Shown here: positions 49,970-58,151 of the stretch, piece by piece
How positions within the stretch are numbered: the stretch's first letter is position 1
Layout of the letters: each line of letters starts with the position of its first letter
Notes under the pieces: model-generated
Databases searched by the model: none
Told to the model about the DNA's origin: nothing
What the model saw: the letters and a program-made list of their open reading frames with translations, nothing else
Assembly: GCA_031278395.1 (NCBI GenBank)
Contig: JAITKM010000018.1
Location: forward strand, 973-64,972
Direction of reading: 5' to 3'
Length of the DNA stretch: 64,000 bases
Source: Deltaproteobacteria bacterium
Lineage (GTDB): Bacteria; Bdellovibrionota_C; UBA2361; SZUA-149; JAITKM01
Made by a program: the position numbers and the translations under genes

Positions 49970-50324
49970 GGGGGTGTTCTGGTTTCGACGTGGATTATGA
50001 ATCTTTATGTGGCGTGTCTCAGAGCCGTTGGCTGAGTTAACAAACGGCAAAAATGTAATCGCAAATACTGACGATTATGCAGAAATCGCTTTAGTAGCTT
50101 AATACTTTGGCGTCTTTTAGCTAGGTAGCTTGCGCTTGGTTAAAAGTTAATTTAGCAAACTAGGAAAATGTTGCTGCTTTGACGGCATAACTGAAAATTA
50201 TTCAAAGCTAGTTATAAAGTTCCTGTCTGAGGGAGGCGTTATGATGAAATTCAAACTTAGGCTACACACGTAGAGGCATTTAGAAACAAATTCGCGGACG
50301 GGGGTTCAATTCCCCCCACCTCCA
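49970..50324 (+). ncRNA. ssrA: tmRNA; tag peptide (A)ANTDDYAEIALVA encoded at 50061-50102
   Basis: 5' GGGGGTGTTCTGGTTTCGAC and 3' GACGGGGGTTCAATTCCCCCCACCTCCA. 7-bp acceptor stem with G.U; resume codon GCA; CCA not encoded. Confidence 0.96.
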
Positions 50325-50429
50325 TTTTTGGTTTTTCCCTATACATATATTTATATCGTGAACTAACTATAGCGCACAGCTTCCTGCTAGCGCTTTTTAC
50401 ATTTAACTTTATTTAGCTTAAATAATTAA

Positions 50430-50828
50430 ATCTCTACAGGAGTTTGGAAGTGGGTGATGGATAGTGAATTTATTGATAGTGAAGTATTAAACGCTAGCGG
50501 TGTTTTGGTGATTAATGACCGTAATGAAAAAGTCTATGGAGATTCGTATGTTTCACTTGCGCTAAAAAAGAATAAAGAAGGCGCCAAGACAGGTGTTAAG
50601 GTTATTCCTTTTGCGGACAGTTATAAATATATGTCAGAGAATGGCACGAAAAAAGTTGAGTTCTTGCTAGATCAGGAAGGGCAAAAAACAGTTAGCACCA
50701 TTGAGTTTAGTAGTGATGGTAAAACTCTTAACGGTGTCTCACGTGTCTCTGGTAAAGACCCAGTGAGCGGCAAGAGTTATACTGCGCATTATACTTGGAA
50801 AGCCCGACGAGTTAATAAGAAAGGGTAA
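50430..50828 (+). pseudogene. Probably 5'-truncated beta-rich hypothetical protein (GxWKW motif), paralog of the 28710 fragment
   Basis: The frame is open from 50430 (ISTGVWKWVMDSEFID...), upstream of the first start codon. The first 39 nt from 50439 share 33 identities with 28710-28748. Confidence 0.55.
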
Positions 50829-50902
50829 AACGTGGTAATTGCAAAAGGGGCGCGACTGGAGACGGTTGCGGAGTCCGCCACTAAATAGTTACTAAAAAGC
50901 AC

Positions 50903-50923
50903 GCCCAGGATTGCCTGGGCTAC
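50903..50923 (-). repeat. GTAG-type REP-like hairpin
   Basis: Minus strand GTAGCCCAGGCAATCCTGGGC. Confidence 0.55.
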
Positions 50924-50986
50924 ACAAAATCTTATTTTTCTCTCTTTTATTTTTTTGCCACTTCTGCTATAGGGCAGCGACTTCAT

Positions 50987-51008
50987 GCCTGGGTGGTGGA
51001 ATTGGTAG
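50987..51008 (+). tRNA. 5' fragment of tRNA-Leu truncated at the D-loop; probable prophage attL core
   Basis: GCCTGGGTGGTGGAATTGGTAG is the acceptor 5' strand plus D-arm of a type II (Leu-like) tRNA. No anticodon or T arm follows, and the sequence becomes AT-rich phage DNA. Confidence 0.75.
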
Positions 51009-51182
51009 TTGTGAAGAGGTGTTACTATGTTAGTCTACATATTCTATTTAGTTTTATAATTTCCTATACATAAGAATGTTGTTATATTAAGTATTTCTAT
51101 GTGTTTTTGCTATGTCTAGTTGTGTTTTTATTTGTTCTAAGTGAAAATGTGCTGCAAAAAATAAAGCTAATATAATGGCAGA

Positions 51183-51212
51183 TTAACAAGCTGGATTTAT
51201 CCGGCTTGTTAA
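51183..51212 (-). terminator. Hairpin ending the leftward early operon
   Basis: TTAACAAGCTGGAT-TT-ATCCGGCTTGTTAA. Confidence 0.6.
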
Positions 51213-51272
51213 AAGAGATATTGTACTATTATATTTTTTTGTATTAAGAAATTGTTGCAGTATACTACCTGA

Positions 51273-51470
51273 TTATAGTCCACTCTTCACGTTACTTTCC
51301 CATTTGATTACATCTTCCATTGGATAAAGTTTTTTGCCTTTTTTTAGCCCACTTGGGTTAAATGCTGGCGGCAGTTTTCCCTCCGACTGAAGTCGGTAAG
51401 CCACATTAATATCTATTCGCCAACGTTCGGCTAACTCTTTTATAGTTAAGAATTTTTTTTCCATAATCAC
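51273..51470 (-). CDS. Excisionase / AlpA-like helix-turn-helix protein
   Basis: FLTIKELAERWRI...YRL...GKLPP...LYPMEDVIKWE. Last gene before attL. Confidence 0.8.
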   Translation of the reverse strand: MIMEKKFLTIKELAERWRIDINVAYRLQSEGKLPPAFNPSGLKKGKKLYPMEDVIKWESNVKSGL

Positions 51471-55311: not shown

Positions 55312-55326
55312 GTTTGTCCCGTTAGC

Positions 55327-55380
55327 GTTATAATTAGAACATTATACTATAATTGGTAACATTACAATACAAAATGTAAC
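55327..55380 (-). promoter_or_regulatory. Leftward early promoter with three putative repressor operators (OL-like)
   Basis: Three related boxes ending in AAC at 55340, 55360 and 55380 (20-bp period). A related box GTTACAAAATAGAAC lies at 58032-58046. Confidence 0.55.
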
Positions 55381-55451
55381 AAAACGAGAAATAATATTTA
55401 TTATTTAATTATTATAGTTAGTTATATATTACAAAAAATAAAAATAATTTA

Positions 55452-55480
55452 TTGACTAATTGTATCTTATAGGATACAAC
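55452..55480 (+). promoter_or_regulatory. TA promoter with palindromic autoregulatory operator
   Basis: TTGACT-17bp-TACAAC overlapping the palindrome TTGTATCTTATAGGATACAA (55460-55479). Confidence 0.7.
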
Positions 55481-55487
55481 TACAAAT

Positions 55488-55787
55488 ATGATAATTGAGA
55501 AAACAGAAATTTTTGAGAAATGGTTAAAAAGGTTAAAAGATGAGCAGGCTAAAGGTTGTATTAATATTAAAATAAAAAGAATAGAAACAGAAAATTATTT
55601 CGGAGATTGTAGGTCAGTTGGTGATGGAATTTTTGAGTTACGTATTTTTGTAGGTCCTGGATATAGAATATATTTTTACTACAAAGACGAAAGGGTTATA
55701 ATGCTGCTTTGTGGTGGCAATAAAAAAACTCAAAAAAGAGATATTAAAACGGCAAAACAAATATTAAAAGGAGAATATAAATTATGA
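55488..55787 (+). CDS. RelE/HigB-family addiction module killer toxin
   Basis: FEKWLKRLKD...FGDCRSVGDGIFELRIFVGPGYRIYF...LLCGGNKKTQKRDI. Confidence 0.9.
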   Translation: MIIEKTEIFEKWLKRLKDEQAKGCINIKIKRIETENYFGDCRSVGDGIFELRIFVGPGYRIYFYYKDERVIMLLCGGNKKTQKRDIKTAKQILKGEYKL

Positions 55788-56086
55788 AAAAACTAAAAAC
55801 AACAAAATGGGATATATTAGATTATCTTGATAACGAAAAGGCAATTGCTGCTTATCTTTCTGCTGCAATTGCCGAAAATAATTTACCAACTTTTATTACC
55901 GCAATAGGTGATGTTGTTCGCGCACGTGGAGTAAACGACATGGCTAAAAAAATGAAAGTCGGCAGGGAAAGCCTTTATAAAAGCTTTTCTGGAAAAACCA
56001 AACCAAATTTTGAGACAGTCATAAAGGCACTTGATATATTAGGGGTTAAAATCAATGTTCTTCCTAAAACAAAATCGTGTAGATAA
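55784..56086 (+). CDS. Addiction module antidote protein (HTH antitoxin)
   Basis: WDILDYL...IAAYL...GDVVRARGVNDMAKK...RESLYKSFS...PNFETV. ATGA overlap with the toxin. Confidence 0.9.
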   Translation: MKKLKTTKWDILDYLDNEKAIAAYLSAAIAENNLPTFITAIGDVVRARGVNDMAKKMKVGRESLYKSFSGKTKPNFETVIKALDILGVKINVLPKTKSCR

Positions 56087-56088
56087 AA

Positions 56089-56862
56089 TTATGCGGCTAA
56101 TAGTTCTTTAGATGCTTCTTTTTGAGACCATAAAATAGTATTAATATCATATACTTTAAGGGCTTCAGTTGCTTCGTTTGATATATTTTTATCCTCGTCG
56201 TTAGCTATAACATAGGCTACTGACTTATCCGTACGCATATCTTTAGTATCAAGCCAATCCATAATAAACATACTAGTTGAAGTTTTATTAGGATAATTAA
56301 TAGCTCTTATTATTCTTTCTGGTGAGTTGGTTGATCTAGGAATTACGTAATCAAAACGCCTAGAGAATCCAGTTTTACCGGATAATAAAACATCAGGAGT
56401 ATATCTTATATTAGAATTTTTTAGCCAATTTCCAACATTTTCTAAAAATAAGTTTGTAGAATGCGGAGATGCAAGATAATACAAATCATTAATAGAAATA
56501 ATAGCTTGTAGTAGGCAGTGTTTTTTATAGGGAAAATCTTTGATTGTGGCAGCCGTAGTTAGTTCGTTGTTTTTACCTAATTTTATACCAAAACCATTTA
56601 AGACAATTTTTAAATAGTCTTTATTTTTTAAGGTTTCAAGGGATAGTCCAGACGATAATAAATCATTTATTGTTTCCCCGCCGTCATTAAGAATAAAATT
56701 TTCTTTTTCCTCGTTCTTAAAGTAGATTTGAATCGCATCGTTATGTCTGTCTAGATATGGGGTAGTTATTTCAGACCAGCCGTTTCCAACATCCTCAAAG
56801 GTTGTTTGGTCTCTTAACCAAATATAATAGTTATCAATCATTTTTTGTAATTCTATTTTCAT
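56089..56862 (-). CDS. DUF1828/DUF1829 protein (C-terminal restriction-endonuclease-like domain)
   Basis: ITTPYLDRHNDAIQIY, LNDGGETI.DL, GKTGFSRRFDYVIP, DWLDT. Confidence 0.8.
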   Translation of the reverse strand: MKIELQKMIDNYYIWLRDQTTFEDVGNGWSEITTPYLDRHNDAIQIYFKNEEKENFILNDGGETINDLLSSGLSLETLKNKDYLKIVLNGFGIKLGKNNELTTAATIKDFPYKKHCLLQAIISINDLYYLASPHSTNLFLENVGNWLKNSNIRYTPDVLLSGKTGFSRRFDYVIPRSTNSPERIIRAINYPNKTSTSMFIMDWLDTKDMRTDKSVAYVIANDEDKNISNEATEALKVYDINTILWSQKEASKELLAA

Positions 56863-57312
56863 ATATGGAAGTTCCTGATTTGCAGTATATTTGGAGGTTT
56901 CACTATATGACAGAATTTCATAAAATCCTCAAATGTTTTATAGAAATCAGATAAATCTGTAAATATTTCCTTAGGTATTTCTATTGCGAATTTATCTAAA
57001 AAATTCTCTTTATAAATATGTAAATGATTACTACTAAGTTTTTGTCCATCTGGATTTGTATGTGGCGCACTATTAATATCTAGTCTCGCTAAAATAATTA
57101 CTTTTCGACTTCTTAGGTTATTAGATATTTTATTTAGTTTAAATTGATTTTTTGTATAATCAATTATAAATTCCTCTTTTTTATTCTCAGAAATAAAATT
57201 TAATGATAATTTACCACCACCTAAATCAGGTAAAGATATTTTTTTCGTTCTTATAATACTTATTTATTGCTAGTAAATTATCTGCTTCTTTTTGCGACAT
57301 ATTGGCGTTCAT
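56859..57312 (-). pseudogene. DUF6978-like prophage protein interrupted by a frameshift in an A7 run (not in ORF track)
   Basis: Frame 1 reads MNANMSQKEADNLLAINKYYKNEK, then stops. Removing one A (57239-57245) gives ISLPDLGGG...ARLDINSAPHTNPDG...HLHIYKE...FMKFCHI, ending in an ATGA overlap with the DUF1828 gene. Confidence 0.75.
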
Positions 57313-57322
57313 ATATTATATA

Positions 57323-57898
57323 CTAAAAATAATTAACAAATGACCCAATAACACGCCCTAATATTTTTACATCTTTAATTTTCATTTCTGTTTTTATCGT
57401 ATATTTTTCATTATCGCATTTTATCAGTGCTTTTTCAGCGATTAAATCAACTTCCACACGCCGAAAACCGTAGTTATCACCTATTGTAGGAATTACGTAG
57501 ATTCCAGATTTATCAATTTTATTAATACCAAAATCCACGAGCACAGAATCATCCGGCTTAAATGTTGGATACATTTCGTCGCCTGTTAGTTTAACCCATT
57601 TTGGGATTATTGCGTTGGGAGCTATATTAATATTAGTAATAATTTTTTCTTCAGAATCTAAAAGTTCCCCAGCGGGAATCTGAAGAGCATTTGCTAATTT
57701 AATTACATGTTCATGCTTTGGGTATTTAACATGCCCAGTCATTATTTTTCTTAATATCTCGTAAGATACACCAGATTTTTGTGCAAGATCTGCCAGAAGG
57801 TCAAATCCTCTCTTTTTCATGTATAGTTTTAAATTTTTAATTAGTGCTTCTGTTTCTGTTGGTACAGTTTCTTTTTTTAATATTTTTTCCCGTTTCAT
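57323..57898 (-). CDS. CI/LexA-like phage repressor (HTH plus degenerate S24 domain)
   Basis: XRE HTH LADLAQKSGVS...KLANALQI; S24 fold GDEMYPT...DSVLVD...FRRV...DNEKY...ILGRVI. Confidence 0.88.
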   Translation of the reverse strand: MKREKILKKETVPTETEALIKNLKLYMKKRGFDLLADLAQKSGVSYEILRKIMTGHVKYPKHEHVIKLANALQIPAGELLDSEEKIITNINIAPNAIIPKWVKLTGDEMYPTFKPDDSVLVDFGINKIDKSGIYVIPTIGDNYGFRRVEVDLIAEKALIKCDNEKYTIKTEMKIKDVKILGRVIGSFVNYF

Positions 57899-58025
57899 AG
57901 CCTTCCCGAAGATTTTTCTGATTAAATATACGTATATTAACTATCTTTGTAAATAATATCGCCTCTTTTTTAGGATAATTTAAAATTTTTTGTTCACTTT
58001 TATAAACAAAAGGGAATAATTATAC

Positions 58026-58052
58026 TTGACTGTTACAAAATAGAACTATAAG
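58026..58052 (+). promoter_or_regulatory. Rightward early promoter with putative operator (OR-like)
   Basis: TTGACT directly followed by GTTACAAAATAGAAC and TATAAG. The -35/-10 spacing is non-ideal. Confidence 0.5.
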
Positions 58053-58060
58053 GGAATATT

Positions 58061-58127
58061 AATCACGGCGGCTCAATGGTAGCTCCTTTGAGTGCAAGAT
58101 TTTCCCGATCTTTGTCCGTGATTTTTT
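58061..58127 (+). ncRNA. Candidate double-stem-loop regulatory RNA in the cro position
   Basis: Closing stem AATCACGG/CCGTGATT enclosing GCTCAA/TTGAGT and AAGAT/ATCTT hairpins, followed by a T-run. Confidence 0.5.
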
Positions 58128-58151
58128 AAGGGATAAAATCGAGGGAATGGA

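Follow-up and report, generated by a model that had tools for sequence, protein, structure and literature searches.

A frameshifted copy of the candidate anti-phage gene pair PDC-M24, probably inactivated, in a prophage immunity region of a termite-gut bacterium

Introduction

What has become of a gene pair that lies directly behind a prophage repressor, in the slot held in phage lambda by the accessory genes rexAB, when its first gene is interrupted by a single base? Such a pair is found in a Deltaproteobacteria bacterium (assembly GCA_031278395.1), within a stretch of 64,000 nucleotides of contig JAITKM010000018.1 (positions 973 to 64,972) that is called here the window. The upstream gene, gene A, encodes a DUF6978 protein and is shifted out of frame in a run of seven A, while the downstream gene, gene B, encodes an intact protein with a DUF1828 and a DUF1829 domain. 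A preliminary description of the locus offered three options for the interrupted gene, namely an on/off switch through slippage in the run, +1 frameshifting and recent inactivation. The third fits best: we hold it probable that the pair is a broken copy of PDC-M24, a candidate anti-phage system, which a prophage carries as cargo in its immunity region, and that this copy was inactivated recently and does not serve as a regulated switch.

A broken gene A and an intact gene B

The module is encoded on the minus strand behind the repressor and is made of the following parts (coordinates are those of the window).

57323-57898, minus strand: cI-like prophage repressor, 191 amino acids (aa), helix-turn-helix (HTH) and S24-like domain, stop 10 nucleotides (nt) before the start of gene A
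57226-57312, minus strand: 5' piece of the DUF6978 gene (PDC-M24A), frame A, ATG start, 28 codons, premature TGA
57239-57245, minus strand (T7 on the plus strand): A7 run, junction of frames A and B
56859-57242, minus strand: 3' piece of the DUF6978 gene (PDC-M24A), frame B, whose TGA overlaps the next ATG
56089-56862, minus strand: PDC-M24B gene, intact, 257 aa, DUF1828 and DUF1829

Frame A starts with the ATG at 57312, reads MNANMSQKEADNLLAINKYYKNEKNIFT and stops at 57228-57226. Frame B, which is +1 relative to frame A, is open over 134 codons from 57263 to 56862 and matches the Pfam family DUF6978 (E 7.5e-37) over profile positions 17-133 of 133. The missing head of the profile is encoded in frame A, where MSQKEADNLLAINK fits the LTQxEADxLxxxxK of intact homologues. 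With one A fewer, a gene A product of 150 aa is expected, and relatives mostly measure 145-151 aa. An open frame of 134 codons in DNA with a local G+C content of about 29% and with a family match at 1e-37 is far beyond chance. The head of frame B contains no ATG, GTG or TTG start codon, and the listing of open reading frames (ORFs) holds no minus-strand ORF of at least 30 aa between 56863 and 57312. Translation of the 3' piece from an internal start was considered and rejected, as no ATG, GTG or TTG occurs before the last 21 codons of frame B and as the missing N-terminus carries two nearly invariant residues. Every coordinate given in the preliminary description for an unannotated gene 10 bp behind the cI stop, broken only in the A7 run, was thus confirmed.

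The TGA of frame B (56861-56859) overlaps the ATG of gene B (56862-56860) in the sequence ATGA, and the gene B protein matches both DUF1828 (E 1.6e-21) and DUF1829 (E 2.1e-28) in Pfam, in agreement with the translational coupling to an intact DUF1828/DUF1829 gene that had been proposed. The invariant columns of the gene A family, R60, H68, N70, P71, H80 and H82, belong to the motifs R, PHxNPDG and HLH and are all located in the frame-B piece. Every invariant residue of A and B is retained in the window copy.

Co-transcription of cI, A and B is likely, because the three genes share one strand, the gap behind the repressor measures 10 nt and no terminator-like site was found between cI and gene A. 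The resemblance to the rexAB slot that had been pointed out holds on the same grounds, and expression of the pair in lysogens, presumed here, would be a further likeness to RexA and RexB. No sequence relation to RexA or RexB was found: for both proteins, PDC-M24 models were all that PADLOC returned at E up to 0.1. The pair also appears to differ from RexAB in kind, since soluble domains are predicted for it, of which one is a nuclease, one is chaperone-like and one has no match.

Membership in PDC-M24

The frame-B piece matches the PADLOC model for PDC-M24A (PDLC04538, E 2.9e-41), and the gene B protein matches that for PDC-M24B (PDLC04539, E 2.1e-92, residues 5-257). As the system is defined, the two genes are adjacent on one strand with A before B, joined here by the ATGA overlap at 56859-56862. 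They depart from its definition in that the two genes are not both intact, gene A being shifted by +1 in the A7 run, likewise in a second assembly. According to Payne, Hughes, Fineran and Jackson (2024; bioRxiv 10.1101/2024.01.29.577857), PDC stands for 145 "phage defence candidates" drawn from genes embedded in known defence loci. The name PDC-M24 was not found in the main text of the searched literature, which did not include the supplementary tables of Payne et al. that list the PDC systems. The gene order, strand and ATGA overlap of the window pair are those of most relatives, whereas these relatives are commonest between hsdS and hsdR and the window pair stands in a prophage repressor operon with gene A frameshifted. 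The pair was therefore already catalogued by PADLOC in 2024, and the window locus is a new, probably inactivated copy of a known candidate system. In this respect the suggestion of a candidate anti-phage system agrees with the PADLOC match and with the defence-gene neighbours of relatives described below, but it was made in ignorance of the catalogue entry.

For DUF1829, the sole validated defence context that was found is DS-6B of HipAD/DS-6, as reported in the DefensePredictor study (Science 2026, PMC13092281). As described there, DS-6B combines DUF1829 with DUF3037 and works with a HipA-like kinase, whereas in the window DUF1829 is fused to DUF1828 and paired with DUF6978, with no kinase. 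At the DNA level, the segment 55300-58150 had no match in the phage collection. Among 60 relatives of the genome that holds the window, some of them incomplete, DUF6978 was found in none except that genome itself.

Predicted structures and a predicted A-B complex

The AlphaFold2 (AF2) model of B reached a predicted local distance difference test (pLDDT) value of 93.3 and shows two domains. Residues 130-257 adopt a PD-(D/E)XK fold in the model, with AF1548 (1y88) as a neighbour in VIA (Z 12.2, root-mean-square deviation (rmsd) 3.0, 111 residues aligned) and in Foldseek (E 1.4e-4), and with further matches to Can2 (7bdv, Z 11.3) and PspGI (Z 11.2). The fold is shared with the PD-(D/E)XK nucleases AF1548, the Can2/Card1 effector domains and PspGI/Ecl18kI/EcoRII at a sequence identity of 7-16%. 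The conserved or invariant residues of this domain are E141, D142, D171, E182 and R183. The nuclease-like partner announced by the preliminary description is thereby supported at the level of the predicted fold. Residues 12-133 resemble type III secretion chaperones and small sensors related to them (3cxj, Z 9.3, rmsd 2.8, 109 aligned), with further matches of the N-terminal domain to PA14_16140 (Z 9.0) and SycN/YscB (Z 9.0). In contrast to Can2/Card1, this domain is not a CARF domain.

For gene A, the intact homologue P0125, 44% identical to the window piece, was modelled with a pLDDT of 92.5 and a predicted template modelling score (pTM) of 0.86. Its comparison with the PDB gave a best Foldseek E of 0.17 and a best VIA Z of 2.7 among 48,161 chains, and a profile sequence search of the PDB returned 0 matches with A and 0 with B. 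A look-up of A in the ESM Atlas yielded one unnamed cluster at 0.88, below the level taken as evidence. The predicted DUF6978 fold is apparently new, a missing PDB match being no proof of novelty.

The complex was predicted for a natural intact pair, that of locus L033 from an Endomicrobiaceae metagenome-assembled genome (MAG), whose proteins are 49-50% identical to those of the window. It scored 0.79, against 0.00 for the best of 3 controls; that mark is reached by 116 of 157 solved complexes and, among 215 mismatched pairs, by 2. At least 63% of contacts are shared between the runs, with a partner pLDDT of at least 83. The confident contacts join residues 79-90, 97, 101 and 108-112 of A (PHxNPD, HLH and DKWA) to residues 29-43 and 58-70 of B, which hold the invariant TPYLDRHND region in DUF1828. 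Because these motifs of A meet the TPYLDRHND region of B in the model, the "His motif" of the preliminary description may serve as an interface or form a composite site, rather than being an active site by itself. According to the models, A would dock on a sensor-like domain of B and the nuclease domain of B would be the effector.

Relatives of the pair and their neighbourhoods

An exhaustive search found 698 cluster representatives of the gene A family at E up to 1e-3, where a word-indexed search gave only 3. For gene B, 964 matches at E up to 1e-5 were retained among 1,481 candidates. A scan of genome contigs with the single B protein produced 40 pattern matches and 0 confirmed relatives, and an alignment query was then used; in this alignment-based scan of species-representative genomes, 558 of 599 pattern matches encode B relatives, spread over many phyla. 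The genome loci examined below are the best 80 of these 558, chosen by their match to B. Where both genes are intact and on the same strand, the 4-nt overlap of stop and start recurs in 56 of 76 pairs elsewhere.

Association of the relatives with defence genes is clear. The upstream neighbour matches a PADLOC model (E up to 1e-5) in 39 of the 78 genome loci in which such a neighbour could be called, 23 of these being HsdS, the specificity subunit of type I systems, and the downstream neighbour does so in 21 of the 62 that were scanned, including 8 type I restriction subunits. The remaining 39 upstream neighbours in genomes are housekeeping genes, a ParE toxin, a Mu-F-like protein, a transposase or unknowns, with no HTH or S24 protein among them. 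In viral contigs, 20 loci with a full-length B were found, which reduce to 16 distinct loci as five are siblings. A repressor-type gene lies upstream in three of the 16 (L004, L005 and L019). In L005, a cI-type repressor with HTH and S24 domains is directly followed by A and then B. The segment 2494-5535 of L019 parallels the window, with divergent HTH genes, A and B behind the longer HTH repressor and then a HicA/HicB toxin-antitoxin pair. In L004, an HTH protein is encoded upstream of the pair. The other viral loci have a type I restriction-modification operon (L003), Mrr-type nucleases (L010, L018), Abi_alpha (L022) or lysis genes, or lie near integrases. The repressor-operon position is therefore a phage-specific minority arrangement, to which the window also belongs.

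Some related loci are organized differently. In L022 (1397-3654), gene A is found downstream of B and has the opposite orientation, beside an Abi_alpha gene and an integrase. Two PDC-M24B-type genes, which match different M24B models, stand in tandem in L032 (4120-5756); an A gene is lacking there, and a PDC-M02A-type gene follows. Short proteins whose match to B is confined to its DUF1828 half are encoded in six phage loci (L023-L028), none of which has a DUF6978 gene close by; they suggest that the chaperone-like domain may also stand alone in phages.

Gene A is not always preserved next to B. Of the 80 genome loci, where B is kept, 62 have an intact A, 5 a split one and 4 a partial one, and 9 have none; in the 20 viral loci A is intact in 15, split in 4 (with one shared break) and absent in 1. 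The breaks elsewhere lie at differing and unrelated places outside homopolymers, and a nonsense codon is among them. The shared break is found in the sibling phage contigs L012, L013, L015 and L016, which carry one and the same gene A frameshift, and the sibling L014 is intact, which makes a natural pair of broken and intact alleles.

Defence or addiction

It might be argued that PDC-M24 is not an anti-phage system at all and is instead a selfish addiction module of the toxin-antitoxin type, or an accessory of restriction-modification, that would serve maintenance in the prophage. The organization invites this comparison: a small upstream gene overlaps a downstream gene with a nuclease fold, here as in most intact pairs, and a complex of the two products is predicted, so that coupling by ATGA and the predicted L033 complex give the pair the coupled genes and binding products of a type II toxin-antitoxin module, the second at the level of a model. 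Relatives are often embedded between hsdS and hsdR, a bona fide toxin-antitoxin pair adjoins the module both here and in L019, and in PMC13092281 the DUF1829-containing DS-6B is proposed to be an antitoxin-like partner in HipAD. On the other hand, 18 of the 80 genome loci, a set chosen by B, keep an intact B next to a split or partial A or with no A at all, and this retention of B speaks against the view that B is constitutively toxic and needs A as its antitoxin. Moreover, the proposal overlaps with a role in defence, in which toxin-antitoxin-like modules often act. An addiction module is consequently regarded as an unlikely reading, and defence as the better one for the intact system.

Is the frameshift real?

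A draft genome assembled from a metagenome (63 contigs), with a local depth of only about 16, invites the suspicion that the extra A is a sequencing or consensus error and that the organism has A6 and an intact, working PDC-M24 pair. Indel errors are commonest at homopolymers, and the rest of both genes is intact. Two results speak against this. Run X1, a termite gut metagenome, is the sole public run that contains the window stretch and is probably the source of the assembly; in an independent k-mer re-assembly of this run, the covering contig (8,094 nt, mean word depth 15.9) has 0 differences and 0 gaps over 56000-58000. In parallel, 67 other A/T runs of at least 7 nt inside the 51 long ORFs of the window (57,885 nt) leave the reading frames intact, 5 of them in rpoB/rpoC. 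Because the re-assembly is identical and these runs are in frame, an error specific to one assembler or a general homopolymer problem is unlikely, and a consensus error that hides an intact pair is judged quite unlikely.

Two further runs of the same study were uninformative on presence or absence, nothing in X2 having matched and X3 having given two 18-nt pieces of one unrelated contig. A genome-wide count of homopolymer frame changes was considered as a quality control and dropped, frameshifts being indistinguishable from gene junctions (262, 102 and 59 at three stringencies).

Switch or inactivated gene

If the A7 run is real, it could be a working switch. Phase variation, transcriptional slippage or +1 frameshifting on GAA-AAA-AAU would then switch A, and with it the system, on, either in a fraction of the population or at a low steady level. 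The break lies exactly in a homopolymer and is the sole defect in a gene that keeps every invariant residue, the genome is A/T-rich and holds 1654 A7/T7 runs, and tRNA-Lys is prone to slip on A-runs as RNA polymerase is on A/T-runs. Efficient transcriptional slippage, however, usually takes place at about 9 or more bases, for which seven is short. The usual stimulators of +1 frameshifting are not visible in the sequence around the run: neither a stop or rare codon in the A site nor a Shine-Dalgarno-like element upstream was found. As in contingency genes, a repeat tract is present inside the reading frame, but its conservation in relatives fails, as no homopolymer is conserved at this site among 77 intact relatives. 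Runs of at least 7 occur in 7 of these 77 genes among the fetched loci, scattered at codons 17, 58-60, 68, 87 and 125. Other copies of A are broken outside homopolymers, as described above, and only A7 was seen in the one covering contig, although this last point is weak since contigs drop rare variants. Altogether the switch found no support and is decidedly unlikely, trace rescue of A by slippage being possible and unsupported. The most elaborate version, in which the lysogen excludes phages by a new two-protein nuclease with a composite site built from a novel-fold DUF6978 His-loop and a chaperone-like domain, and in which slippage in A7 toggles it such that part of the lysogens bear the cost, is highly improbable.

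Read most simply, gene A was lost recently through the insertion of one base, one instance of a recurrent fate. The loss would be recent because both genes keep every invariant residue. The preferred course of events can be outlined as follows. A prophage that adjoins the tmRNA gene of a termite-gut bacterium would carry a copy of PDC-M24 in its immunity region, and A and B would presumably be transcribed with the cI-like repressor in lysogens, like rexAB in lambda. In the intact system, the DUF6978 protein A would bind, via its PHxNPDG, HLH and DKWA loops, the TPYLDRHND motif in the chaperone-like domain of B, whose C-terminal PD-(D/E)XK domain would be the likely effector nuclease. The extra A in the A7 run shifts gene A out of frame after codon 24, and no full-length A would be made except for traces arising from slippage of polymerase or ribosome.

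Several points weigh against this reading of an inactivated defence system. Only contigs were compared and X1 is probably their common source, which leaves room for A6/A7 mixtures or for a consensus error shared by both assemblies. A single clean break in a gene with all its conserved residues also fits a gene that is still used via slippage. The genome loci were chosen by B, which biases the excess of broken A over B, and some of these records may carry indel errors, their sequencing methods not having been checked. Regarding function, no obvious (D/E)xK lysine is present in the expected place of the B nuclease domain, so that catalysis is not assured, and the complex was predicted for the L033 pair of another genome and not for the proteins of the window. 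Finally, all 145 PDC systems are called untested by Payne et al. (bioRxiv 10.1101/2024.01.29.577857).

The prophage around the module

The surroundings of the module are those of an immunity region with its divergent operons.

55488-56086, plus strand: convergent toxin-antitoxin pair (context, outside PDC-M24), Gp49/HigB-like at 55488-55787 and HI1420/HigA-like at 55784-56086
57899-58151: intergenic region from which the repressor operon and the helicase/primase (replication) operon diverge, from the ORF map
55312-55487: divergent intergenic region between the exonuclease/RecT operon (minus strand) and the toxin-antitoxin pair (plus strand), from the ORF map; the "OL-like" region of the preliminary description

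The prophage begins after the tmRNA (transfer-messenger RNA) gene (49970-50324) and runs off the contig end, which lies 249 nt past the window. Its leftward operon encodes an exonuclease, RecT, a 552-aa protein, an SSB-like (single-stranded DNA-binding) protein and an excisionase-like ORF, and its rightward operon a helicase, a VRR-NUC nuclease and a D5-type primase. The stretch 50325-51470 contains no ORF of integrase length, and between the tmRNA gene and the excisionase-like ORF (51273-51470, minus strand) there is only one of 124 aa with no family match. No second copy of the tmRNA 3' end, which would mark the other attachment site, was found in the assembly. Either an integrase is encoded past the end of the contig, or what is left of the prophage may be a remnant.

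The repressor (57323-57898) matches Pfam Peptidase_S24 (3.6e-07), HTH_26 (2.2e-06) and HTH_3 (4.8e-06) as well as the PHROG annotations of transcriptional repressor and CI-like repressor. At its residue 108 (57575-57577, minus strand), it reads G-D-E-M where the cI-type repressor of L005 reads G-D-S-M, and it has R-R in place of K-R. The serine of G-D-S-M and the lysine of K-R are taken by us to be the self-cleavage dyad of the S24-like domain. Judged from these residues, and if that assignment holds, the repressor may resist cleavage, and the SOS response may then not induce the prophage in the usual way.

The repressor-maintenance and early-right promoters presumably lie in the intergenic region 57899-58151. 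A promoter-like site is located in it at 57953-57925 (minus strand), although shuffled sequence yields such sites at least as often. In the other intergenic region, the 23 nt at 55368-55390 are 74% identical to 58034-58056 (family D5), which is weak evidence. The preliminary description had placed the module between cI and these "OL-like" operators; it does lie directly behind cI, but the toxin-antitoxin pair (55488-56086) separates it from 55312-55487.

The toxin gene (55488-55787) matches Pfam Gp49 at 3.4e-09 and the antidote gene (55784-56086) dnstrm_HI1420 at 1.8e-26, with a PHROG match to "toxin" at 1.1e-31. The two genes overlap by 4 nt and converge on gene B, such that the two facing stop codons are 2 nt apart. 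A perfect inverted repeat, TTGTATC-N6-GATACAA, is present at 55460-55479 just upstream of the pair and could be the operator of the antitoxin.

Significance

Taken alone, the window locus adds little, being one more and broken copy of a gene pair that is already listed. The recurrence of the pair behind phage repressors (in the window, L005 and L019) and inside restriction-modification operons is what would be expected of a portable defence or exclusion module. What is new stands at the level of the family: A has a confidently predicted fold with no PDB neighbour, and B, judged from its model, joins a domain like type III secretion chaperones to a PD-(D/E)XK domain. The best-conserved residues of A and B are predicted to stand face to face, which makes them clear targets for mutation in PDC-M24. 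In addition, the repeated independent loss of A with B kept is a cheap clue as to which of the two proteins carries a cost or can be dispensed with.

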